A DNA stretch of 51,793 nucleotides, taken from positions 1 to 51,793 of the forward strand of contig JYFJ02002745.1 of the NCBI GenBank assembly GCA_000934665.2, given 5' to 3'. Within the stretch, counting starts at the first letter, position 1, and each line of letters starts with the position of its first letter. Below are positions 750-47,581 of the stretch, in pieces. The position numbers and the translations under genes were made by a program. The stretch comes from Catajapyx aquilonaris. Its lineage: Eukaryota. The notes beneath the pieces are model-generated. The model ran no database searches, was not told where the DNA came from, and saw only the letters and a list, made by a program, of their open reading frames with translations.

Positions 750-3700
750 ATGCTCGTTTGGTGGGGGCAGGGAGAAGAGTGGCGCCATCAACAAAGTCGG
801 ACCAACAACTTGCTGGTGCCAATGGTGTCGTTCAGTGTGGACCCGCAGATGTGCGGGATGCTCTTTTCCATCTGCCAGCGACACGAGAGACCGTCTACTT
901 TCATGCCCCTGGCGTCCGACCCCTTCCAGACCTGTGATGCACCACCACCAAGCTTGCTGGCCTTAGCATCCAGTGTTGGGTGCAACCTGTGTGGTCTTTC
1001 AACTGTTGCTGCATGGGCACCTGTGCTTGAATCAGGTATGTCTTTAATTTTGGCAGAGTACTACATAACTGAATGTTTCAAAATCACTCTGCTTAAGCAG
1101 GTGACATCAATTATTGAAGTGTCATGATTGTATAAGGAGTAGTATTCTGAAGTACAGTAGTAATAATTATTTACTGATTTTACAGTGAAGGTTACTGGCG
1201 TCCTTGTCTTGGTTGGTGTGGGCAGTTTCGCCTGCTATCGCCTGTACCACTATGTCAGGCCCCGACTTCGGACACCTGCAAACGAATCTTCACATTCCCG
1301 GGACTCCTCCCCGCCACCACCACCACGATTGCCCCCAAAGAGGACGTGGTCGTGGACCCAAAGGGCACAGAGAGTTATCTCGTTCTTCATGGATGAGGGT
1401 CACCTCATCCAAGATGTGGATGAGGTTGAAGATGACGATGTTGATATGATTCAGGTCAGTGATTAAATGCATTGAACTGTAAATTAGTTGTAAGATGCTC
1501 ATAATTATCCTAGTCTGAGGCAAGTCACTTACATAGTGGCATGAAATTGCTTTCAAAGATATTGTAGTCAATTTTATACAAATATAAACTTACTTCCAAC
1601 ACTGCTGCAGCTTTTCCTGCAATGGAACATGATTCGTGCGCAATTTCTAGAAATTGGGGTCAGACAAGTTGAAGCTCTTGTTTCTAACAGCCTCCAGTAT
1701 TGATCTTGCAGAGAAGTATGTGAAAGCTTAGATGGTATCGTGGAAGTCAATGGGAGGAAATGTAAATGTGGGTAGCTGCAGTTATGCGAGCTGGCAGCAA
1801 GCCCCAGACTTAAAATCTGTCTCCATCTTGTTGTTTCCCACTTTGTCATTTCTAAATAAAGTCTCCTAGGTTAGTGAGAATGGGTAAGGGGGATTAACCC
1901 CCAAGTAGTGCAGGCTATTTTCAAAGAGTGTGCTTGAGGAAGGTGTAGTGATGCCAAAGTTATCGTTACTTTCTCATGCAGGACAACTTCCGCACTCTTA
2001 ATTATGATGATGTTGATCTTTAACCCCTGATGTATGGCATTTAATAATTTATTAACATTAAGTTCATGTTTTGCCCATTTTGACATCATTCAAATCCATG
2101 CATAGTGAAGCCGGAGAATTATTAAGTTGCAAGTGTTTTACAATATAATTACGATCAACTTTTAGAGTGGAAATATATCCCCTAGTGAAATGGGTCATTT
2201 TGTCAGTTTCTGCTGCATCCAGGTGAAGGGTTGTAAAAAATGAAGTGTAGAAATGACATTTCCAAGCCTTTTAATTTCATACAATTAGGAAAATCAGCGA
2301 AACATTTTAAAATAAAAGTATGTAATTTTTTTGTGTGTGGCTCTTAAAATCCCTCCCATTCCCATGCGACTATCTGTCACTCTGGTGTCAATTCCCACCC
2401 ATCCATACTAACAGGACATACTAATGGACAACCCCTAGAGGTGATAATATTCAATAACTGTTTCCATCTTTTCAGGGGAGGTACTTTGGACCTAAAACTG
2501 TTGATGATGACTGCTACAGTTGCTGCTCATCATTCCTGGTGAGCAATTCCAATAGCCTTGATAGCCGAAGCTACTCTGCTGATGCGAGTGCCTCAAACAC
2601 TAATGGTGAAGGGGTAAGACGCTGTTATGCTGTTTATTATACTGTACTGCAGGGGGGGGGGGGGGGGTGTCAGTATTTGGAAACGAGTAGGACCTGTCTA
2701 GAGCTTTCCCAACCTCATTACTTCCTAAGGAGAGATACCTGCATTGCAATATTGTGTGTGAAGGATGAAGTGGGAAACGTTGAAGGCTACAAATGTGTCT
2801 GTGGCATATGTCTAGTACTGTAATTTGTAAGCAGCTGATGTCAGCCATTTCCATGATGGGTGTGACAGTGCAAAAGATAAGCAGAGGTCCCAAAAAAACA
2901 TGCACATTCGTAGCAGATAACTGTCCGTATTTCATCCGTCATCCACGTTTGCGATGGGTATCTGTTCCTCATCATGTCTTGTGGTGTAATAAGGCAGGGC
3001 ACTCCAGCCAGGGCCTGCTCATTTCTGACTACTGCTGTGCATGGGCACAACATGCACATTCAAGGCCAACCATCACTCTTCATAATACTTGTTATAAGGA
3101 TGCCTCTCCCAGTAGGCATACATTTTTTTTTCCCCCTTCTCAGTCAATCAAGTTATAAAAATATACCTGAAACTTGTTTTTGGACTTTATTTCTACTGAA
3201 GTGGGTAATATGCGACGCTTAAGATTGGGCATGAACTACCATTGCCATCAAATTTGAAAAAAGAAAAAAAAACCTTTACCATTAAATTTTTTTCATAGGC
3301 CAATTCAAAACTGGAAAATTGATAATTTGTCAATTTCACACCCTGACTTCTACAACTCTAAAAGAGAGAAGTAAACGTTGAATTTCACTTTTGATTCTGA
3401 TATTATTTCCTATGATTTCTGCTTTAAAAATTTGCATGCAGAGGCTAAATCAATCTTGGAGCACATCTTTTCTGCATGAGCATCCTTTCTTCTTCTTTGA
3501 CCAACCTGTAGTTTGTGGAGGTATGGTGAATATAGAAAAAAAGACACGTATTACACATCACAGCATAAGTGAGGTGCATTTCCACAGTTGGAGAGTTGAT
3601 CTTTTAAAATTCAGAAAGTCTGTAAAAACATGCAGTCATGAAACATAGTAACTTAGACTGTACTTAAGGTGAGTTGAGTTCCATTCGTGTGTACAATAAA

Positions 3701-6700
3701 AAATGAGCCTGTTGAGTGATTGCCAGCTGGATGTTCAACCAGCCTCGCGCTAGGTTTCTGATGTCAAGAACATGTCTCTCTTCCCTAGGAATGCACCTCG
3801 GATGATGCTGCAAGTCTTGCTTCAGGCAGCACCTTTCCCACCCTTCTCCCCGTCTGGCAAGGCACAGTGGCATGCGAGCCACCTCCCCAACACCCTTCCA
3901 ACCACCCACAACAGCCATCTACCTGCCACCGCTACAACTCTACCCCCAACACACCCCCTTCGCAGCTGTGCCAACACAAGCAGAAGATGGTGTCCTCAGA
4001 GCCTGTGATGGAACCCTCCTACAAGCCCTCTCGCCGGAGTGGTCTGAGGGACATACCTGTGGAAGGCAGGGAGGTCAAGCGGCAGCCTCCTGAAGGTGCA
4101 GAAATGAATCTCCTCAAGAGGAGTATGACCTTGCCCATTGACAGAGACCTCGTCAATCTGTATTCGCGGTAAGCTCACTCTTGCTGGATTCTTGATCTGT
4201 TGTGCCAGTCCAGGCCTGTGATACCTTCATCAGCATGCTGTCCACCACATGTACTGATTTGTTGTTGTTGTTTTTTTGCAAAAGTTGCATATATTCTAAA
4301 TGCAAAGCGTATGTTGCAGAAGTAAGTTATGTGCCCACAATGATATAACACCAAAATGCTAGCAATTGAATGTAACACACAAATGGGGTTTTAAAACCAT
4401 TTATTATTTTCAGGCGTGGTTCAGGTTGCTGTGGTCCCCGCAGTCTGGAAAGTATAGGTTCTGACTCAGGTCCATCGGAAATGTTCTTGTCAGACACTAA
4501 TCTGAAGCGCTTCCTACGTGAGAACTCCCTAGACAGCCTCTGCTCAGATGTGAGTTGGGACCTATCAATCCAGGATGAGCTGGGAGAGACCACATTGGCC
4601 TACCTTGAGAGACTGCAGTCTGAGATTGACCGACTGAAGAACAACTGTTACAAAATGGAGGATGATGTCGAGTCCCTGAAATTTTGTGAGGAGGAGGAAG
4701 ATGAGTCAGAGGAGGTCAAGGAGGAGCCAGATCAAGTAGGTGAGATCAAAGAGCCCAAAAAGAAGAAGAAGAAGAAGAAGTCTGTACATCCAGCACTGTC
4801 CAAGAGCACAATAGTGGGAATGTACAAGCTGTCTGCTATCAGTACCAGCTTGTCTGAGTCTGACCTAGAGAATGCCACTGGGCTAGAATGGGATTCTCCA
4901 TTGCATGGTGCTGCATCTCAGGCATCAGCAGCCTGCATGGATACACCGCAGAGCCTGGAATGGGATGATGAAGGGCTCTCGGACTTCCCACCAGAGGAAG
5001 ATCTTCCAAACCCAATGTCTCATGCTGATGTTGGGAAAAGTTCAACTCCCGCCAGCACTGTATTTCAAGGGTGGTGCTCAGAAGAATCAGGATTCATGGA
5101 GGCAATGGAGATATCGTGTACAACAGTAGAGTCACCAACTAGCCTCTCGATATCATCCAGTGAGGCATCGTCATACCCAAGCCCTTGCTCAGTTCCAGAA
5201 ACACCAGACAACAACAATGCACCTCATCTGTATAGTGTCAGCCCAAAGTACAGCATAATTGCCTATTCTGAAAGTGAGTGGCGTGGTAACACACCAAAAG
5301 CACACACAATGCTGCAAGGCTACTGTGAGATCCCCACACGCTTTGGCTTACGCCACCTGCGCCAGATACGTGGTGATAACTACTGTGCACTTCGCGCTGT
5401 GTTATTCCAGATGTTGGCCCTTCCGTCGGCACCCTTGCTCCCGAGTGGTAGTGCCACCTATGAGAAGTTACATGATGCCTTGAAGTCTGGATGCCACTGG
5501 CTTTACAACTGGACATTTGCTAAGCGATTGCCTTATACAGGAGCAAGGGTGTGGGAAGGGATTGAGGCGTGCCTCTCTGAGTGGGACAAGGCGTTGTCAA
5601 CCATGGGGCATGCAGATGGTAAGACAAGCAAGGAGGAGAAGGTGGCTGCATTGTTGAACTTTGGGGAAGAGAGAGACTGCATGTTGATGGAAGCAGTGAA
5701 GTTGCACATGCTGGCAGTGAGCTTGGAAATGCACAATGCCAACATGGGTGGACAGGATACGCCTCTGTTTGCAGTACTGCTGTTTGCAAGGAGAACATCT
5801 GAGACACCCAAGGATTTCATGGGGAATCATCTCAACGACGTTGGTAGTGGAGGGGGACTGGAGCAGGTGGGTGGTGTTCATGTATTCTTATGTCATTGGT
5901 CAAATATGTAAGAGTTGTGAGGGGTGTGGTGGAGAAATGTGATAACCATAATTTTTGTCATTTTTTGACCTAAACACCTGCAACTACGTAAAAGACATGA
6001 CAAACAGTTAGGTACACTCACAAGTTAACGCATCATGCACGAGATGGCCATATGAGCTAGATCAAAATGTGAATTCCCTATGATTTGTTAAGAGAATGCA
6101 AACTTCAATTTGCTCTCCTGAAAAATTACACTTTTGTGGGTTATCACCTTTTTTTACCACAACCCTCAGTTGATGTAGGTAATGTAAACTCACAGTATTA
6201 CTCATACATGTGGATCATTCTTGCCAATTTTAACAAATGGGAGCCTCTTAGAATAACACACAAGACTTTTAAAAATTGCCTTTCATGACATATTTTGAAG
6301 TCACATAATCCAAACCTTGTTCCTGATTCATGCAGGAACATGTTGACCTGCATGAATCAGGCACTTTATCCTAATATCATATGCCGTGGACAACTCAGTT
6401 TCAGGAATGAGGGCAATAAGCGGGATGCACGTGCCATAAGACAAGTCACTTAAACATAGGCACTAGTTTTTATCAACGTATTGGGTGTAATAATAATTAT
6501 CCAAGTAACAGCACCATGAGTGGAGCTGTCCTTTCATTCACACTTCCTGTCGTTTTCCATGCTTGTCAAACTCCAGGATTTGAACAAAGTGAGTCCTCAT
6601 TGCAGGATTTTTGGGCTTGCTATGCGACATGTTTCACGGTATCTTTCCCCTGCATCTTTTGCTACCATGCAATGTGAATATTCAAATGCCAGTGGTTGTG

Positions 6701-7299
6701 TTAATGTTGGGGGGGGGAAAAGAAAATGTACTTTTTCATTATGTTAGGAATCAATTCTGTCCTATAGGAGAGCACGAAATATTATGTAGAATCAAAATAT
6801 TATGCTATACCAAACCTAGAGACTGGTTGCAGCTGTTGTTTAATTTATTTAAAGATCATAAGGATGGCTCGTTATCAGTGACAGAGCAACGCTGCACTGT
6901 CGTGTCCTACTACAACGTCCACCAGCATTTGATCACATTCTGACCAGTCATCCTAAACTTTTTGCTCGGTGTAGTTCCTGTAGGACATCTAGGCAATAAC
7001 CACAGGCACTTGAGAAACCTACTTTTCATTGTCATGTATGTTTGAAATCCTGCTGATGTGAAATAGCCACACCTTGGATGTCCCCAAGTTATCAACACAA
7101 ACTCACATTGCCCTCTTGTCCACAGGTTGAGATGTACCTCCTGGGCCACACACTGTCGACTAACATCCTGGTGGTACGTCCCTCTGTCCATGGGCAGCCG
7201 GATTACCTCACCTACTACCCGGAGTGGAATGTAGAAGAGTGGCCCACTGTGGTGCTGGTAGCTGAAGATGACAGGCATTACAATGTTCTTGTGCCCTGA
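750..7299 (+). CDS. OTULIN: OTULIN/FAM105-family OTU deubiquitinase with long N-terminal extension (~899 aa). Exons 750-1035, 1186-1454, 2476-2613, 3789-4168, 4414-5866, 7126-7299
   Basis: C-terminal domain has RQIRGDNYCALRAVLFQ (catalytic Cys loop), GGLEQ|VEMYLLGHTL across the last intron, and AEDDRHYNV (His/Asn). All six exons have GT-AG ends with matching phases and total 2700 nt. The upstream four exons are less certain than the last two. Confidence 0.85.
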
Positions 7300-12654: not shown

Positions 12655-18998
<6,344 letters not shown>

Positions 18999-32093: not shown

Positions 32094-35000
32094 CTTTTGA
32101 TGGCACAACAGCAGCAATGGCTATACTGCACTAAGAGCAGGATTTGGAAAGGCAAAAATGATTAAAGAATTGCAAAAAGTCCTTACTATGTGCTCCTTAA
32201 ATTTAACCGACATCATCATTTAAATTTGAGAACTCCTAATCCTAAAATGCACTTTACTGTGAACCTTCCTGAAGAGGAGTGGTCAACTTCTACTATTGTA
32301 ACTGTCCAGGCACATAACCTGAACACTGAACTAGGAAGTACTTGAAGTAAACCTTTCTTCTGGTCCGTTGCAGGTGCAAACCCGCCTGGAGAACCCTACC
32401 AAATACCACGTTCAGCAGACCCAAAACCGGCAGGTCCGGCAGTACCTGAGTGAGTCTTTCCAAGGCACTAGATCTCTCCTGCGATCCCAGCAGGACCTGA
32501 GTGCCCAGCAGCAGCTACAACTACAGCAGCAACAGTCACAGTCTGTCACGCTTGCTCATAGCAATAGTAATGCTCTTGCCCAGCACCAGAGCACCAGTGC
32601 TCCTGGGATTGTGAACTTACCTGCAGATAACTGCAGCACTGCAACCAGCCCAGATGTGGGGATCATGTCGCCTGGGGTGTGCAGTTCTTTGGCTCCATCT
32701 GATGTAAGTGTGGCCAACACTTTATTATTACAATATGGTTTGATTTTAAGTTACTGAAATGCAAGTTGGTTACCACAAATTACATCATGCTCTCTATTGT
32801 TCTCAACGCAATAAGCGAATGGCTGGAAGGGTCAGAAGAATTTTGTCAATATCAATAATGATTTCCGGCCAACATGAGTCCAAGGGGGTAGTCACTTCTC
32901 AAATAAGCGTACACAGGCTCTCTTGAGCTGTGGCTCTCCGCGGCTCTCTGAGGCTCTCCCCCGGCTCACCAGCAGGCTCACCCACTGTCTTATGGGCTCA
33001 CCGATGCCTCGGAGAGCCGCAGCGAGCTTCGGAGAGCCAACTACGTGACAACCCGTACGGTTGATGATATGATGTCAATCTGACGTAGTTTTTGCTCGGC
33101 TCTCCGCCGCCCTCTGCGGCTCTCCTCGGCTCTCCTCGGCTCAACAGTGAGGGTGTACACCGGCTCTCCGAAGTGACTACCCCCTTGCATGGGTCAGTCA
33201 AGTTTTGAATGAATTTTGCCACATAGAGTTTTCATTTTCATGAATGCTTAGCAAATGATACATAATCTAAACACGAGATGGAAACTTTTCCATGCTTGTA
33301 CACTCACATTGCCTGATCATACTGGTGGTAAATTCAAGGCCACAACTTGGGCTGCCAAGTCTGGGGCATGTTGTGAATCACAAAGGGAAGCAAATTACCT
33401 TGCCTCTTAGCACAAAGAAGGCCTTTCATTGTTATGAAGGATTCAGAAGGGATACTCGAACCTTTCAGATCACTCCACTTATCTACATATAGCAAGAGCA
33501 AACACAGCCAGCACTTTCCAATTATTTTCTCCTAGATCAGTTTATCACCAAATCTTAGCCCCCTCCTCACCAGCCACCCTTTTTGTTAATGGGATTTTGT
33601 GAGGGTATTAGGTTTGGAGTGACTCACTTAATACCTATCCTGGGGGAGAAGATTACTTGTGACGGGAAGGACATGGAAATTTCGAAAATCCGAGTGTTGA
33701 CCTAACACACACATCCCGTCAAGATAAAACGGGAATAGTCTGGAATTTATCTCAAAAGTCTGGAAGACTCCGACCTCTTTTAATGGGGGCGGTCTGTGGT
33801 GGGAAATAGCTTTCTCATTTAGTTGGAATTGAAAACACTTGCATGTACATTATATTGCCCAATAGGTGTCATATTCAATCTGAACTATTTTTTTGTCCCA
33901 GAAGAACGCCCGCCCTCAAAGGGCTTGAACCATGCGTGCCATAGATAAACAGTCTAAAGTTGTGCAATTGGGGTGTGACGTAACAGAGGGCGTCATGGCC
34001 GTGTCTAGAAATATTTGTCCTGTGAGGGATAACAAAACAATGCTTTTTTTTGAGTCGGATAAAAATGCATGATAAGGTCCAAAATGTACAGGAGGTGCTG
34101 TACCTTTCCAGGTGTAGTATGCTGTGTAGTCAGCCAAGGACACAATTTTTTTGATTCCCATCTGGATTTCCCTGTATTTAACCAAGGCCAAGGCTGCATG
34201 AAATTGAGATTTGTCATGTAAACTTTAAAAAAAAATAATTATATGGTTAGTATTTACCTTTCAATTCGATTGTATTCAGCGCCCTTTTTCCTAGTAATAA
34301 TTTAATAGATTCCGAGCACATTACCGGGTGGTACATAACGCCGATAGTGACTACCGCTCCTGAGAATTCAACCTTGACCTAACTCAGCCGGTCAAAGTTC
34401 GCATAAAATGTGAGTCGCTCAAAAACTATTTTAACGACATACTGCAGTACCAGTCAGTTGTGCAGTAGCAATGGTGCTTTCCTGGTCCGTAAGTAGCCCT
34501 ACTTATGCACCCACATTTAACACAGGTATCGTCAATTTACACCGCACATGGCCTTCGACTGGTATGGCCCCACGTGGACCGCACCCCCTGTTAATTCCTG
34601 GCGCGACCTGCACCATGAACTTCCGGCCTCGGGGGGGGGGGGGGGGGGGGGGGGGNGGGGGGGGGGGGGGGGAGGGGGTCGGAATCCTGACCAGCATGTT
34701 CCCATGCGTAAAAGGACAGCGTTAAAGTACAAGGAAAAATACGACAATAGGAGGAAGTGTTGTCCGGCCACTTTATTACGGATCGACGAGCGTGACATAT
34801 GCGCACGTAATTGAGGCAAACGGTTTAAGTATAGGGGGTACCTGCTAAATAAACGAGCAGGTTTCGTGCTAGATATCATGCTTTTTCCTGGAATCAGCGT
34901 CGCACAATTTCTGCCAGTGAAAAAAATTATAAATATTGCAAATTGTTGGGAAAATTGTGCAGGTGCGTGTACATCGAGATTTAATCCCATTAGATAATGC

Positions 35001-40009: not shown

Positions 40010-43000
40010 CTACCGCTTCGGTTGGGGACCGCTGCTTAAAATTTGCTGCAGCCTCTTCTCAAATGCATCCATGTCAGCACGGTCTTGCTGAATGCTATCA
40101 CGAAGCTCCTGGATTCCATCCTCAATCAATTCGTCTGGCTGCCACTTGCGCTTCATTGGCAACGTTGGTGGCTTCTTGCTGGGAGATGGCACTTTTGCAC
40201 ATGGAGCAGCAGATGTTGAAGCCTGTTCACCTTCTGTAGAAATGTTAACGATCTTGCCTTTTTCAATGATGTCTTTAAGCCAATGCTCGGTCTGACATAG
40301 CTCCTCCTTGACTTTGGATGCCTCGTTGCGAAACAAATCATATTCAGGAAGGATCTTTACCAAAGTAGACTGAACTGGTGGTGGCGTTATTGGTTTAGGT
40401 GAGATCATTTCTGGACTCGGATTTTCAGGAATGATCACTTCACGTGGCCACCTGACCTGGAAACCTTCGGTTGCATCAACTGGGCATGCCACCATTTCGT
40501 CTGGAAGAGTTGCCAGTTGATAGTACATGCATGCCTGTATCAAGTGCAGCCAGGGCATGGCATGGAAGTCACAGGGTTTCTCTGTGAGGCTAGCCACCTT
40601 TGAAAGAAGCAGGGCCGTGCTGGCCGATTCACGTTTTAGTCCCCGGCAGTATTGCAAGATGTCCATGGAGTCCTGATACAGTGGGAGTTGCAGGGACACA
40701 ATGGATTTGGTCAGGTGATGGAGGTAATCAAGGCTGTTCCAGTTTCCAGGAGGATCCAACATTTTGTTGCCACGCAGAAGCTCTGGAGCTGGCCACGAGA
40801 GCTCCAGAAGGGATGGGTCAGCCCAGATTCTGGCCAGGTGGACAACAGCTGAGTTGTACACACTGATAAGACTATTTGGATGCTGAAACAACAAGGAACA
40901 TTACAGATTCATTACTTACATGTCAAGAGTGCAACTTTCAACTCCTATCCAAGTACTTACTCTCCTCTGCTGTCTATATTGCCATTGCATGGAAAAATCC
41001 TGGAAGAATGGTTCCAGTACCATGCTGGTCAGGTTATCCTCAGCCCAGTCCTTCAGTGGCAGCACACGCACATTTGGAGGTGATGGCCTGAACCTCGCCA
41101 GCCATTGCAGCAGTGATTTCAACTGAAAAGTGCACAAGTTGACACTTTCATTACTTCGGTCGAATTTTCGTCCCACTGCTACTTACTGCTAACTTGGCAG
41201 TACCATTGCCAACACTGGAACTGCTAAGGTAGCAGCAACTAGCGGTGGGACGAATATTCCACCCTTAGAAACAAAATTCTGACATCTTTTATGCAACTGT
41301 CCCTCATTCATAATTCAGATTTAGCTTGTTGAGACCTTATTAAGACGGACAACGGACAAAGCACTATAGAATCTTTATTTATTTTGGAACTCACCGCCAA
41401 ACTGGCTGCAGGCTCTTGGAACTTCAGCTCCACCTCTTCCACTTGTGACACTAGCTCAGCCATGGAATCATGAAGGGAAAATACACATCCACCAAGAGTC
41501 ATTACTGCAACTGGAATTGATGGTATTGATGGTAGCACGTGCAGGACATCCTCCATCAGGTCCATTCTCCCATCATTTATGAACACAATCCCATGTGCAC
41601 CCTGTACATCATGCTTGATTGGGCTCTTGGTACAGCTCCGAATGCATACCCACAACTTTCCATCGTGGTAAACTGACACCTCTCGGTCCTCTCCAGAATG
41701 CAACTTCGCCTGTTTGACACAAGATAAATTTAAGATAGAATAGGCAACATTTATTGAGAGGAAGGAAAAACTGATAACCCACCTGCACCCAACGATGGTA
41801 CTTGCTTCCAACCACTACCAACACTTTCCATTCAAGCCGCTGCCTTCGATAACAGTCTGGACCAAATTCATTTGCCACTGTGGCTATAATGTCCAATGGT
41901 TTCTTCTCCATGGCACTAGACAGTTTGGCCATGCACAAAGCAGCTTTACCCAATAACTGGACTTTCTCTCGCTGTGAGGCAACCTCCTCCAAATTGGTTG
42001 CAGGAATGTCTGATCCATCGTGCAGTGGGGTGAAGAAGCTGGCAAGGTACACCGACTCCTCCCTGCCCTTCCTCTTAGCCTTCAGCCTTCGGCGCCATTG
42101 GATGAACAGCTTCCGCATCTTAAACTGATGTGCTTGCCGATTCAGTCTTGAAACATTCTCTTCATGCTCCCCAATTGCTTCCTGAAGTGTTTCACTGGCC
42201 ACTTCCTTTAACTCGGATGCAATGGTCTCAAAGAGTATGGTCCGAGCTGCAGATAAAGCCACCCTTTCTTGTGCCACGACTAAGGCAGCAACACCCGCCG
42301 CCATTTCAGCTGTGACATCTTTCAGTAATGACTCGTGAATCTGCATGAAAGGAACAACGACACAACATGAGAATAAGGTTTGCCAGCTAGTGGCTAACTT
42401 ATGCGAATTGTACCGACTGTGAGTATAGTATTAAACAGTCAATCCTGCACTTACTTCAACACACACTTTTGCAATGGTGATTTCCTTCTCCCTCTTCTTC
42501 CTTTTTTCTTCTTCTAAGGCCAACCACTTCTGTACTTCCTCAGCCTTGGCCTCCGCCATTGCATCTTCGCAAACCTCCCTGCACATCTGATTGCTCACTT
42601 CTGTTATTATCTCCTGTAGCACCTGGTATCCTTCCCGTTCAACCATTACTGCCATGCACAAACGTTTGGACTCCCTGTCTGTATACTCATAGCTTATCTC
42701 CTCCACTATGGCCTGACAGCAACGATCCCTACAGGCTTCCTCCTCCATCTGGCGACGCTGATGCTCCAGTGGATCAGGTTGTAGAGGGACAGGCAGAGGT
42801 GGAGGATGCTCTGGTGCAATGTCTGGTTGTGCAAGGGAAGGATGAAGGGGGAAAGGAGGTATTTGAGGTGGTGTTGACGAACCTCGAGGTGAACTATCAC
42901 TGGGCACTGATGACGTCAAGAAGCCATGCTCATTGAAGCTGTTGTGAGGTACATGGGTGAGGTACGGGTTTGGAGGCAAGGGACTTCCATTTATCACCTG

Positions 43001-46000
43001 AAAAAGAAAGTGGCCCTTTCATCCAGAGACAAGACTTCACATTAAGGCTAGAGAAGAAACATTTCAGGTACACGATGTGACATGCAACTAGATTGTGTGA
43101 CGGTGAGTTTTCAAGTGAACATAAACCATACCTCTCCAATGGAACAAGTCCGCTTGCTTTCAATGAGCTTGCTGGCCCTAAATATAGTTGGAGCAGACTC
43201 AGGACTGTGGAAGCTTCTTTTGTCAAGTATCAGTGATTGACTGGCATCATCTGTCACCAGACCATGCTGGGCACAAAAGTGGGAGGCTTCCATGGGGCCT
43301 TCAAATCCCAGCAATTCAATCAGTTCAGCCATGGGGAAATTTATGCTCTTTCCTGGTGGGCAATAGGCACGCAGGATAATGCGTAGGGCATGAGTTCGCA
43401 CCTGAAGTAATAAAGCATGGGAATAATTTGAAATGTTGTGGTACACTCATCACTCGTTTTATATACTAAAGCAATAATGAAATGAAATATTTTTATACAG
43501 TATATCTGTCAGCAGAACTTTACAAATAATGTCACAATGCAGTTCATATCAAATTTAAAAATGAAACTGTGGGCCTCTCTGATATTTACCACATACCTGA
43601 ACAAAGTATCTTTGCAGAATGCAGGCCTCTAGGTAGGTTGCTTTCCGCACCAAATTGAAAAACTGAACATAATTGTGCGAGTCCAGAGCCAGCAGGCAGC
43701 TCACTGCAAACCTGACACAAGATGCACTGTGCACCTCCTCACGCAGCTGTGTAACTTGCCTCAGGCTGTCCCCTTCATTCAGGTTGAGCAACACATCATA
43801 CGCTCGAAATTCTGCCTCACTATGGCAATGAATCCCTTTCTCATCCAGATCACTGTATAGCTCCTTCAGGGTTTGCAGGCACTTGGTGAGATTCTCATTG
43901 TTTATCTTCTGGTCAAATACTGACATGTCCTCCTCACAGAGCCGTTCTGCACAGTGGATGTGGAACCGGGCACACTTTTCTACCAACGCCACTGACTCCG
44001 GACTGCAGAGTTGCTGCTGGGTCACATCTTTGCGTATCCCCCTGGTGCGATCCCACACAAAGTGGTACCAGTCACCTAGATTTTCATCCAATGCTTCACT
44101 GCGGTCCATCACTGAGTTGACGAAGTAGTCCATGGTCATGGTAAGAACAGGAGTAGGGCGAAGTTCATGTGGGAGTGGCTCTTCCTGATCAGCAGAACTT
44201 CGAGAATACTGCTTGATAGCAGCTCGATGGTCAATGATATATTCCTTTCTGTCTCCTGTTTCATAGGATGCCAGCTGGCGCTGTTCTTGCCGCATGTAAC
44301 GCTCCTTCTCTGGGCACATGTCTGGACATGTACCCACATTCTGCTTGTCCAAGGACAGGTCAGAACGCTTGGACTGGAGGCCTGTGGAAACAAATGACAT
44401 TAATCCCATGATCTGACAGTGAGAGTAAATTACTGGCAAAAATCAATATGTCCAGAAGGAGTTTTCAATTCAAATTTTTTGCCGAGTTCAACAAGTTATT
44501 ACAAATAATTTTTGAAGGGCATCCTGAAAAGGCATACTGCTTCACATGAATTCAGCATTCCTAATCTTTCTTAAGCATGAAGTATCAGACTTCCCCATTA
44601 CAATCTTCAAAATTATAAGTAGATTGCTTGACAAAAACATTTCTAATTCCTTATTATGTGGATAGCAGAATTACATTGCAAGCATATTGACAAATAATAA
44701 AATAAAAGCCAGTCAGCCACAGTTACCCATTATGTCAAATCATGTTAATGGACTTCACTAAATCACTATTTATCCCAAGTATTACCTAGCCTCAGAAGAC
44801 GATCTCTTGCGTCCAAAACTTTGAATCTCTCTCCAGCAGTGAATGCTGCTTGCTTGACAATAGACTTGAGCTCTGGCACCATTGTTGCGCCAGAGAGCGG
44901 GACATCTTCCTTCTCTGCCTTCCCCTTTGATGCTGACTTATGGCTTCGTGATGGTGACATTGCCTTTCTGAAACATTAACCATATGTTGCATTTTGTCTC
45001 AGAAGGATCAAGTAAGTGACTTTCAATTCTCTGTTATGACCTGGAAGATACTTGATATTCAGGCCACTGCAGCCGAACCAGAGGCCTTGAAATACACTTG
45101 CAGAATATGATTTCAAAAACTCTGGCTTTTACATGATACAGGCCATTGGTAGTTCTGGTCCTGTACAGAGCAATAGTAAATAAACGCATGTTTGCCCTTA
45201 CTTTGTTTCTGGCTCAACTAATCCACCCCCCATGGCATTAAGTTCTTCAGTGATGTCTGGGTCCTCATGCAGTTTCTTCTTTCGCCACATCTGCTTCTGG
45301 ATCTGCCTTGTCTCGTCCAACTGGCGCATTTTATCTTCCATCTTCTTCAGCCTGTCCTGTTTCGCAGTTTCGGCTGAGCTAGTTTTTAATGACTTTGGAG
45401 ATGCTGACTTTGGAGACAATGAGCTGTAAAAGATTTTCATAGTGGAGCCCTTGAAGAAACCACCTACACCATGTTTTTTGGCAGCAGCAGCAGCATCCTG
45501 AAAATATATTTAAATGACTTGTATAAAGGTGTATCATAATTTTGGGACAAGGCAAGATGACTTGTGAAAGGTCAAGTAGCAGGTTGGGGATATAGGTAGA
45601 GGGGAGCAAATTTTGACACAGCAAATAGGATAAGTTAACAAAATCCTGACTAATTTCCCCAACTGTGCAATGCAGAGCACCCATCTACACTATATCCAAA
45701 TGTTTGTCAGGTCTTGAACTTGGATCTACCCCTTGACACCCGCGAAAGTGTCTGCTCTCTCAAAAGGAGCATTGTTATCACCATGACCAGAAAGCCAGCG
45801 ACCTTCTGCAATTTGACAAATTCCCTGCCCTGACACCCACCTTTAGCAAGAAATTTAACGGACAGATTATTGCAAAATTGGTTGGCAAAATGAACACAAT
45901 CATCACAAAAATTTGCAGATATTCTACCTGCCTAAAATTGGGATATAATAGGATAAAAATGCCGCGACATGACCCATAAATTCAAGGTTCTCAACCACCA

Positions 46001-47256
46001 TGCCATAAATTAGATACAACTTACATGATTATCATAGTGAACATTAGCAACTCTCTTCTTGTTGTTCAAGCTGATGCGAACCACCTTTCCAAATTGGCTG
46101 AAATGGATTTCCAGCTTTTTCTTTCCAATTCCCTCTGGAACGTCCTGGCAGCAGATTGACTTGATCTGCTCCAACTGTCCTGTAGGAATAACTTTCTTTT
46201 GCTTTCCTGTTGGCACGTCCACAGAGCTACTTCCACTTGACATTCGCCGCCTGGCAACGCTGCTCTTCTTTAGCATTGATACAGCACGACCAAACACACC
46301 TCCAGTTTTTGCAACTGTTTTCTTGGGATGCAGCGAAAACGTCTTGGTATCATCTTTGCTTTCCCTGCTAGGTGGCTTAGTCGCACCTTTGGTCTCCATT
46401 GCCACATCTTGGGATACACTTACGGCTCCCTCATCTACAATTAAATATTTACTGTCATTTTTTTTGGAGCATAAAATAAAATAAGTAAAAGTTCTTATCA
46501 ACTACGGTAAGAAGTAATGTCCATGTTATTTTTAATGTTTAACATTGAAAGCTTGCTAAGATATCAAACACTTAAAACAGGCTGACACAAAATGTGTAAG
46601 CTACTTTCTGAATATAGCTAAAAATTAATTACTAATAGTAATTATAAAATAATCAAGGACAGACCCTCACCTGGCATATTATCAGTAGGTCGTGTTTGCT
46701 TCAACCTTGGATCCCTTGGATTCGGTGGAGGTGTAAAAGCCCCTGACACTGATTTTGTGAGTGGGAAGGTTGGCTGTGAAGCTGACCTCATCCCAAACAC
46801 TTGCCGTGAGGTTGACATACCAAATATAGATGATGCTGACCCACCAGATGATTCAGTCACTTGTGGTGTTTTAAACTGAAACGCTTGAGTGGTTGTCCCT
46901 TGTCCAAAGGTATATCCTGGTCCTGATTTCGTACCAAACCCCATTTTCCCACGACCCTTTCCAACAACAAACGGTGTGACACCAAATGCAGGTGAGGAAT
47001 ATTGTCCTCCAAAGATCCCAAATGCTGACTTTGATGGTTGGCCCGTAATGTTTTGGAAAGTTCCTTTCTGAGTGGCTTCTTGGGCAGAAACATGGCCAAA
47101 GAGGACAGCAGGTGGTTCTGGTTGAGACACTGAACTGAACATGGGCCTGTGAGTCAATGCGTGAGGGTCTGATGGGGGTACATTGGGTGGTGTATACTCG
47201 GGAGGTGGTTTTGTCTCTGGTCTGGGTCCAAGTGGGTTCGTTTGTTCTCCGAACAT
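40010..47256 (-). CDS. MCM3AP: GANP/MCM3AP (Sac3/xmas-2) TREX-2 mRNA export scaffold (~1659 aa). Exons 47256-46671, 46434-46025, 45497-45202, 44967-44786, 44381-43597, 43401-43132, 42997-42455, 42340-41783, 41709-41395, 41122-40961, 40882-40010
   Basis: FG-rich nucleoporin-like N-terminus, RRM (HFSQFGKVVRI), Sac3 domain GTCPDMCPEKERY...YSRSSADQEEPLPHELRP...WDRTRGIRKDVTQQ...EAEFRAY, and CID-like helical region (KLFIQWRRRL). Exon phases are consistent and the total is 4980 nt. Confidence 0.93.
41162..41259. repeat. Imperfect hairpin (~44-bp stem, 10-nt loop) in a GANP intron
   Basis: GAATTTTCGTCCCACTGCTACTTACTGCTAACTTGGCAGTACCA / TGGAACTGCTAAGGTAGCAGCAACTAGCGGTGGGACGAATATTC. Confidence 0.8.
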
Positions 47257-47581
47257 GGCTGAATAGATTCAGGCACCTGAAAAATATTTAAAAAAAGCAT
47301 AAAATATAGCACTTCAAACCAAATATGCAAGATTTGCCATTCACATGTTTAAATATTCACCACCAGATTTACTACTAATACAATTGGTGTCATGAGATAC
47401 ATGCGGTATAAGTGGAAAAAAAATATCTGATGGACCTATTTTGCTATTGTACTAGCACAGTCACAAAAAAAAACCTTAAATGAATACTAGTAAAATACAG
47501 TACAGCATAGATTATCCAAATACCAATCAACCGAAACATCAGTTAACCTAAAGCGTTCAAGTCGGTAAATTCAAATTTGCA

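Follow-up and report, generated by a model that had tools for sequence, protein, structure and literature searches.

The contig JYFJ02002745.1 of Catajapyx aquilonaris (GenBank assembly GCA_000934665.2), analysed over its whole length of 51,793 nucleotides and called the window below, carries a six-exon gene for a predicted membrane-anchored cysteine deubiquitinase of the OTULIN type, with a putative specificity for Met1 chains. The linker between the membrane anchor and the catalytic domain contains two copies of the tetrapeptide LEWD, a W-acidic motif of the kind through which cargo adaptors dock onto kinesin light chain (KLC). Judged from sequence, a motor-docking motif of a known type is found here in a carrier and an architecture that are both new, and in arthropods the motif is more conserved than the active site of the protein that carries it. 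The tetrapeptide does not vary in any of the four arthropod subphyla, although the segment around it evolves fast and is predicted to be disordered, and for this reason LEWD is very probably a selected docking motif. KLC's tetratricopeptide repeat (TPR) domain appears to be its most likely reader; that the protein recruits kinesin-1 in this way is a proposal that we consider about as likely as not.

Two LEWD Motifs in the Linker of an OTULIN-Type Protein

The two motifs lie in one long open frame of the plus strand (4376-5911), where frame +1 reads ...ENATGLEWDSPLHGAASQASAACMDTPQSLEWDDEGLSDFPPEED...; GLEWDSP is encoded at 4880-4900 and SLEWDDE at 4952-4972, both in exon 5, and the stretch that drew attention to the pair, 4883-4969, runs from the first L through the second D of LEWDD. 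An earlier reading made from the letters alone (the sequence-only reading) had claimed paired LEWD motifs 24 residues apart. The frame translation bears this out, with 72 nucleotides from motif leucine to motif leucine, and a transcript contig covers both copies. The composition of the linker leads one to expect about 0.02 strict [LM][DE]W[DE] motifs per linker, and among 200,000 shuffles of the 514-residue linker at least one motif arose in 3,756 and at least two in 27, which rules out a chance origin of the pair. An internal duplication of the DNA is ruled out as well, since the copies share only those codons that LEWD forces. The same is true of an LC3-interacting region (LIR, Atg8-binding) motif, for which L, I or V at W+3 is lacking.

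The gene model comprises six exons (Table 1) and yields a product of 875 residues; the frame is open throughout, and by inspection of the splice sites all introns are GT-AG. Exon 5 was translated from 4412 into 485 residues (P0001), the query for structure prediction and for the searches for relatives, and the remaining exons were located by tblastn with eight orthologues. The start codon was taken at 822, with 750 as an alternative in-frame ATG. Contigs of the public run X1, the kind of which is not on record, skip four introns at the modelled junctions, joining 1035/1186, 2613/3789, 4168/4414 and 5866/7126 (each GT..AG after the stated shifts of the cut), and a loose contig end at 2471 represents the last bases of exon 2. 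Because the introns are skipped at the exact junctions, we take these contigs to be spliced transcripts and the motif exon to be part of the mature mRNA. One spliced X1 contig spans 4822-5259 with zero differences and has both LEWD motifs inside it. An (AAG)n repeat in exon 5 was left out of the contig mapping.

The sequence-only reading had also proposed an anatomy of anchor, coiled coil, LEWD pair in an acidic linker and active deubiquitinase domain, and this order holds for the spliced protein; the helix shows heptads, the linker is predicted as disordered, and the Cys/His/Asn triad is intact. The most hydrophobic window of 19 residues, at residues 74-92 (VTGVLVLVGVGSFACYRLY), has a Kyte-Doolittle mean of 1.72, and the membrane segment is kept in orthologues. 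The net charge is 0 over the 15 residues before the anchor and +4 over the 15 residues after it; since the C-side flank is the positive one, the positive-inside rule would place the linker, and with it the long C-terminal part, in the cytosol. The 71-residue pre-anchor segment encoded by exon 1 includes a further hydrophobic stretch, less strong, at residues 45-63, which makes a hairpin anchor possible. The pre-anchor N-terminal segment itself (window 813-1052, MVSFSVDPQMCGMLFS...) is conserved with Timema (E 2.8e-11).

After the anchor follow 514 residues of linker, rich in Ser, Glu, Pro and Asp, which a charge-hydropathy estimate places on the disordered side. The structure predicted by AlphaFold2 for the 485-residue exon-5 translation (alignment of 56 rows; the last 58 residues of the protein are absent from this model) agrees with this estimate in showing one confident helix at exon-translation residues 55-91, with block values of the predicted local distance difference test (pLDDT) of 89-94, and an OTU domain at 88-98, nearly everything outside the two being below 50. 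The values below 50 include the surroundings of both motifs (exon-translation residues 155-159, 161-176, 180-182 and 185-191). Over about four heptads, hydrophobic residues of the helix recur at a regular 3-4 spacing; the form in which the sequence-only reading quoted it, LAYLERLQSEIDRLKNNCYKMEDDVESL, corresponds to 4595-4678 (in a longer reading LAYLERLQSEIDRLKNN...) and lies upstream of the motifs. Behind the helix, the (AAG)n repeat (window 4751-4786) puts a run of eight lysines, EPKKKKKKKKSV, into the linker. Orthologues have no counterpart of the run at that place, and most insects have a sequence of the NRNLPGMSS type nearby.

The assignment of the catalytic domain is firm. Residues 275-485 of the exon translation match Pfam PF16218 (Peptidase_C101) with E 3e-52 and 178 bits against a cut-off of 27; exon 5 covers profile positions 2-209 of 265, and tblastn finds the remainder in exon 6. 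The triad is intact, with the Cys in GDNYC and with the His (7276-7278) and Asn (7282-7284) in DDRHYN (7267-7284). The best matches in the PDB are chains of human and other OTULINs (1.3e-34 to 2.9e-31), and FAM105A/OTULINL follows at 4.6e-21. The protein ends ...HYNVLVP, an ending that is not a C-terminal PDZ-binding motif.

Conservation of the Motif Among Relatives

Relatives were gathered by word-indexed searches and an exhaustive HMMER search, with the exon-5 translation or an orthologue as query. We considered the best 120 of 279 matches in one search, all 76 matches among longer proteins in another and the best 150 of 310 in a third, which admitted E values up to 0.001 and covered 1.84 billion representatives. 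Among the matches listed, the closest relatives are 35-51% identical. The insects among them are cockroaches, a termite, damselflies, mayflies, crickets, a katydid, locusts, stick insects, bugs and thrips, and the other relatives listed include decapods, a mantis shrimp, barnacles, an isopod, a millipede, a tick, a horseshoe crab and a scorpion. Holometabolous insects are absent from the named matches listed, in which hemimetabolous orders are well represented. As far as these matches go, this suggests that the gene was lost in Holometabola, in line with the description of Drosophila as having no OTULIN orthologue (PMC5090701).

For a scan of the motif we used one sequence per named genus and all but its last 250 residues, leaving out additional isoforms and species from a genus already represented, some Timema models and unnamed Logan/JGI proteins. 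The strict motif [LM][DE]W[DE] occurs before the OTU domain in all 33 of the 33 named arthropod genera: 17/17 hexapods, 12/12 crustaceans, the single millipede (1/1) and 3/3 chelicerates, with the same counts for the relaxed form of the motif. Molluscs have the strict motif in 0/13 genera and the relaxed one, as LSWD or IDWD, in 13/13. Neither form occurs in cnidarians (0/2), the hemichordate (0/1), tunicates (0/3) or vertebrates (0/15, none of these sequences being named OTULINL), so that the strict motif is present in 0/21 of these four groups of relatives. As to the sequences left out of the counts, the Timema models P0003, P0004 and P0005 skip the region of motif 2, the models P0013, P0127 and P0130 have it, and the unnamed arthropod-type proteins P0132, P0137, P0151, P0173, P0197, P0212 and P0294 all have LEWD.

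The contrast between the motif and its surroundings is seen best in an alignment of the whole protein from arthropods (36 rows, including the full spliced protein of the window). Only 12 columns are invariant in the entire alignment, and four of them are L515, E516, W517 and D518, the residues of motif 2. Each of these is kept in 36/36 sequences, compared with 34/36 for the catalytic Cys and 31/36 for the His. On average, the top residue makes up a fraction of 0.34 of a linker column, compared with 0.60 for columns of the OTU domain. This indicates very strong purifying selection on the motifs. The sequence-only reading had put forward as its check whether LEWD is conserved in orthologues from invertebrates while the linker diverges, and this comparison comes out strongly in its favour. 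Its interpretation as a whole, a kinesin-1 cargo adaptor that carries linear-deubiquitinase activity on an organelle, is partly supported. The consensus around motif 2 is [DE][DE]x[ML][PA]S-LEWD-[EN][ED][DC]-L-x-[QE]-Y-x-E. Motif 1 (xEWDSP) is less constant, with W in 25/36, D in 30/36, S in 26/36 and P in 26/36, and a W[DE]S[PA] copy is found upstream of motif 2 in 22/36, at a distance of 24 to 89 residues.

The invariant Trp also bears on a different explanation, according to which LEWD is a site of the initiator-caspase type ([LIV]-E-x-D plus a small residue) at which cleavage would free the OTU domain from its anchor in immune or death signalling. The pattern [LIV]ExD is matched by both motifs, with Ser as the next residue in the case of motif 1; furthermore, human OTULIN is described as having a caspase-3 site in its N-terminal part (PMC7862380), and IMD of insects is cut by DREDD at LEKD/A (PMC6626034). 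However, the middle positions of the IMD site drift across orders (LEKDA, LETDA, LKSDA, LTTDA; PMC6626034), whereas the Trp is kept in 36/36 sequences here, although a caspase site does not require it. In 31/36 sequences the residue after motif 2 is E, N or D. These are poor residues after a caspase cut, and the LSWD and IDWD of molluscs do not fit such a site either. We consider cleavage at LEWD highly improbable.

The motif outlasts the active site. In four lineages SLEWD is kept despite the loss of the catalytic Cys, the His or both: in the tick Ixodes (P0295) the Cys is replaced by Gly and the His is gone, in the millipede Chamberlinius (P0289) Cys has become Ser and His has become Gln, in the scorpion Centruroides (P0162) His is replaced by Gly, and in the stick insect Bacillus rossius (P0201) by Cys. 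Because of these replacements, the four forms are probably pseudo-deubiquitinases, as is vertebrate OTULINL. The same sequences weigh against the idea that the motifs fold back onto the protein's OTU domain and regulate it, for example by autoinhibition. The motifs do precede the catalytic domain in the same chain, and such regulatory arrangements are common among deubiquitinases. However, a role limited to the control of catalysis is disfavoured because the motif is kept in forms that lack catalytic residues; the distance from motif to OTU domain is long and variable, and in the predicted structure both motifs have pLDDT below 50 next to an OTU domain at 88-98, a weak point given that the model ends before the last 58 residues. 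A fold-back element is, in our view, very unlikely.

Kinesin Light Chain as the Proposed Reader

The consensus reported for W-acidic motifs that bind the KLC TPR domain is L/M-D/E-W-D/E (bioRxiv 10.1101/2020.06.17.157255), with a central Trp between Asp or Glu residues and often L or M at W-2 (PMC5450233), and both copies in the window match it exactly. LEWD is described as the commonest form of the motif and as the KLC-binding sequence of nesprins, Nup358 and UNC-83 of Caenorhabditis elegans (PMC12581424). The binding of UNC-83 LEWD to KLC means that a reader exists in invertebrates. Motif 2, QSLEWDDEGL, shares LEWDD with the SKIP peptide TNLEWDDSAI that was crystallised (PMC6214655). The KLC2 substitutions N287L and R251D are reported to abolish W-acidic binding (PMC5450233). 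The setting corresponds to that typical of kinesin-1 cargo adaptors, being acidic, predicted to be disordered and, by the inferred topology, cytosolic; acidic minus basic residues within +/-10 amount to 6 in the window and to 4-10 in hexapods and crustaceans. W-acidic motifs often occur in pairs, kinesin-1 offering two light chains, and several copies on a membrane protein are reported to suffice for kinesin-1 transport and to enhance it (both bioRxiv 10.1101/2020.06.17.157255 and PMC6214655).

If KLC is the reader, the anchored protein would present two W-acidic peptides to the light chains, and more than two if the heptad helix pairs, as it may. The LEWD peptides would displace the autoinhibitory LFP-acidic segment of the light chains, and active kinesin-1 would be recruited, and probably activated, on the membrane that bears the deubiquitinase. 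Avidity for both light chains of a motor would come from the two motifs per chain, perhaps together with helix pairing. The organelle would, by analogy, be the endoplasmic reticulum (ER) or the nuclear envelope. These are the first places to look because vertebrate OTULINL, described as a pseudo-deubiquitinase, is located there (PMC7862380).

Several observations weigh against KLC as the partner. E(-1) and D(+1) are invariant in 36/36 sequences, although either acid would satisfy the KLC consensus at these positions, and the conserved footprint, with M(-5), L(+5) and Y(+8), is longer than the SKIP peptide of 10 residues; the invariant acids and the longer footprint point to extra contacts or to a different, more demanding reader. 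The flanks of chelicerate motifs are hardly acidic (acidic minus basic = 1-2). LSWD and IDWD of molluscs fall outside the strict consensus in all 13 genera, and no W-acidic peptide was seen in the cephalopod-type cluster P0221, the Haliotis isoform P0297 or the nemertean protein P0267. Finally, motif 1 is absent from 14/36 arthropod sequences, and where there is a pair its spacing varies from 24 to 89 residues, so that a fixed pair is not what is conserved.

An alternative explanation, which we regard as unlikely on the whole but by far the weightiest of the rivals considered here, is that LEWD is a real docking motif for some other partner, such as another protein with TPRs or a beta-propeller, a subunit of a coat or adaptor that recognises Trp in acidic surroundings, or part of the linear-ubiquitin machinery of arthropods. 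Tryptophan-acidic motifs have other readers too, such as COPI subunits, and the invariant E(-1) and D(+1), with M(-5), L(+5) and Y(+8) likewise conserved, go beyond what KLC is reported to require. Vertebrate OTULIN has a linear motif at the same relative position, which is reported to bind the PUB domain of HOIP (PMC7862380). Because Drosophila LUBEL is described as having no PUB domain (PMC5090701), docking in arthropods would have to take another form. On the other hand, the core of the motif is identical to the commonest KLC-binding sequence (PMC12581424). The 875-residue model contains no match to D[LM]Y[RTG], our own rendering of the PUB-interacting motif as a regular expression, which rules out that reading of the linker and counts against a partner of this type. 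When the termite orthologue's linker (residues 300-700) was used alone as a query, 21 matches came up, all 21 with PF16218, and thus, within the reach of this query, neither a form without the OTU domain nor any other family that has the region. A separate comparison of residues 140-240 with the ESM Atlas, confined to named clusters other than those with PF16218, gave no usable match. We know of no alternative reader that prefers L-E-W-D specifically. For these reasons the TPR domain of KLC remains our preferred candidate.

Placement in the OTULIN Family and Significance

A maximum-likelihood tree was calculated from the last 290-300 residues of 48 proteins; it has a midpoint root only and several long branches. 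The tree places the window protein in a pancrustacean group (support 89/94), though only at the level of this group as a whole; the unnamed protein P0241, which fell among pancrustaceans on a long branch, was disregarded. Vertebrate OTULIN and frog OTULINL are united in one vertebrate clade (99/89), and the arthropod genes branch outside it. This placement implies that the arthropod gene predates the duplication that gave rise to OTULIN and OTULINL.

OTULIN has been studied almost only in vertebrates, as an eraser of linear ubiquitin bound to LUBAC, the assembly complex for linear ubiquitin chains. OTULIN genes are described from vertebrates and "a few non-chordates" (PMC7862380), and the lack of the gene in Drosophila (PMC5090701) has kept arthropod OTULINs out of view. 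The literature searched, as far as its text was accessible, yielded no account of OTULIN from insects, crustaceans or other invertebrates, and in the same literature we found none that links OTULIN with KLC. The literature search also found no description of the architecture, which the sequence-only reading had remarked it did not know from any described OTULIN. The membrane-anchored form is present in hemimetabolous insects, crustaceans, myriapods and chelicerates, and in it a linear motif is more conserved than the catalytic Cys.

If binding to KLC is true, this would be, within the literature searched, the first member of a deubiquitinase family into which a kinesin-1 adaptor is built. Binding to KLC would also explain the persistence of pseudo-enzymes in the OTULIN family, and it would provide a testable idea for the role of OTULINL, which is listed as an open question (PMC7862380). 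The motif could easily be tested in insects that are amenable to RNA interference.

A broader scenario, which we offer tentatively and consider somewhat less likely than not, is that protostomes possess an old, undescribed class of membrane-anchored OTULINs in which the LEWD peptide, docking onto kinesin-1, and not the active site is the most constrained part. Such a protein would primarily be a motor adaptor of an organelle, with a linear-chain deubiquitinase activity that some lineages have dispensed with. The editing of Met1-linked ubiquitin would thereby be coupled to the microtubule-based positioning of organelles, and vertebrate OTULIN (soluble and bound to LUBAC) and OTULINL (membrane-bound and inactive) would be two halves of the ancestral design.

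Other Features of the Linker and the Window

The linker contains further conserved islands. In the serine-acid island RENSLDSLCSDVSWDLS four Ser columns recur in nearly all arthropod sequences (Table 1), and the island may be a phospho-regulated element. A third island, WCSEESGFMEAME, lies behind motif 2. In several insect genera its counterpart WSSEESG[FYC]M[ED]WD includes a third W-acidic copy, [ML][ED]WD; the window and decapod versions are without the Trp. By an ad hoc regular expression, GFMEAME of the window and GYMEGxE of decapods fit a FFAT-like (VAP-binding) pattern, and many insects have Trp at the position of this pattern that should be small. A further conserved element of the orthologues is RAxFxGLYSLT. 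Many orthologues also have an acidic leucine-rich island after motif 2 (LPDHSSLELDLEEEL in decapods, DTLEMDLEAEL in a cockroach and a mayfly), and none is evident in the window protein.

Outside the OTULIN-type gene, the window holds the neighbours given in Table 1. When the 20 longest among the 82 open reading frames of at least 95 residues in the window were compared with Pfam, they yielded no TPR protein.

Table 1. Coordinates of the OTULIN-type gene, the elements of its product and the neighbouring genes in the window
Feature	Position	Strand	Evidence or remark
Exon 1	822-1035	+	tblastn with Timema orthologue, 813-1052, E 2.8e-11; donor AATCAG/gtatgt
Exon 2	1186-1454	+	carries membrane segment VTGVLVLVGVGSFACYRLY (1191-1247), with basic residues after it
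Exon 3 (GRYFGP...)	2476-2613	+	tblastn 2461-2520; GT-AG sites
Exon 4, proline-/serine-rich linker	3789-4168	+	open frame
Exon 5, most of linker, both LEWD motifs, first four fifths of OTU domain	4414-5866	+	
Serine-acid island RENSLDSLCSDVSWDLS	4517-4567	+	Ser columns 372, 375, 378 and 381 kept in 34-35/36 arthropod sequences
Conserved heptad helix TLAYLERLQSEIDRLKNNCYKMEDDVESLKF	4592-4684	+	AlphaFold2; orthologues LxxLQxEIDxLK...MDEE
W-acidic motif 1, LEWDSP (residues 491-496)	4883-4900	+	L-E-W-D core 4883-4894
W-acidic motif 2, LEWD (residues 515-518)	4955-4966	+	conserved footprint about 4931-4996
Third island WCSEESGFMEAME	5072-5110	+	shared WSSEESG[FY]M[ED], scorpion to insects
OTULIN / Peptidase_C101 domain, first part	5234-5866	+	catalytic Cys codon 5384-5386 (GDNYC)
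Exon 6, end of OTU domain with DDRHYN	7126-7299	+	stop codon 7297-7299; C-terminus ...VLVP
Amidohydrolase pieces	14414-17365	+	Pfam
Single-exon MFS_5 transporter, 487 residues	21459-22922	-	Pfam 3.5e-93
Exon with MITF/TFEB N-terminal region	32335-32757	+	Pfam 2.9e-12
GANP/MCM3AP gene	40010-47268	-	Pfam SAC3_GANP 5.5e-93, MCM3AP_GANP, RRM

Comparison With Known Systems

With the W-acidic adaptors SKIP/PLEKHM2, calsyntenin-1, nesprin-2 and -4, Nup358 and UNC-83 the window protein shares the L-E-W-D core, with L at W-2 and acids beside the Trp, as well as the position of more than one copy per chain in an acidic, cytosolic part, predicted to be disordered, of a membrane-attached protein. It differs from them in that the carrier belongs to a deubiquitinase family and has an N-terminal anchor, and in that its binding to KLC is putative. 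Moreover, the conserved footprint extends over about 19 residues and exceeds the known contact peptide, and the E and D beside the Trp never vary.

Vertebrate OTULIN (FAM105B, gumby), a Met1-specific OTU deubiquitinase, resembles the window protein in the Peptidase_C101 domain and in the conserved GDNYC and DDRHYN. The residues that align with what we take to be W96 and D336 of human OTULIN are conserved as well. In contrast to OTULIN, the window protein features a linker of 514 residues with LEWD behind a membrane anchor, and it is without the PUB-interacting and PDZ-binding motifs.

In vertebrate OTULINL (FAM105A), too, an N-terminal membrane-localisation segment is followed by a domain of the OTULIN fold (PMC7862380), and several arthropod lineages likewise lack catalytic residues. 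However, OTULINL is described as having Asp/His/His (PMC7862380) where the window protein has an intact Cys, His and Asn, and its match to the window protein is weaker than that of OTULIN (4.6e-21 compared with 1.3e-34). A 2026 preprint reports a weak ubiquitin esterase activity for human OTULINL. By its predicted features the arthropod gene unites a membrane anchor as in OTULINL and an active site as in OTULIN.

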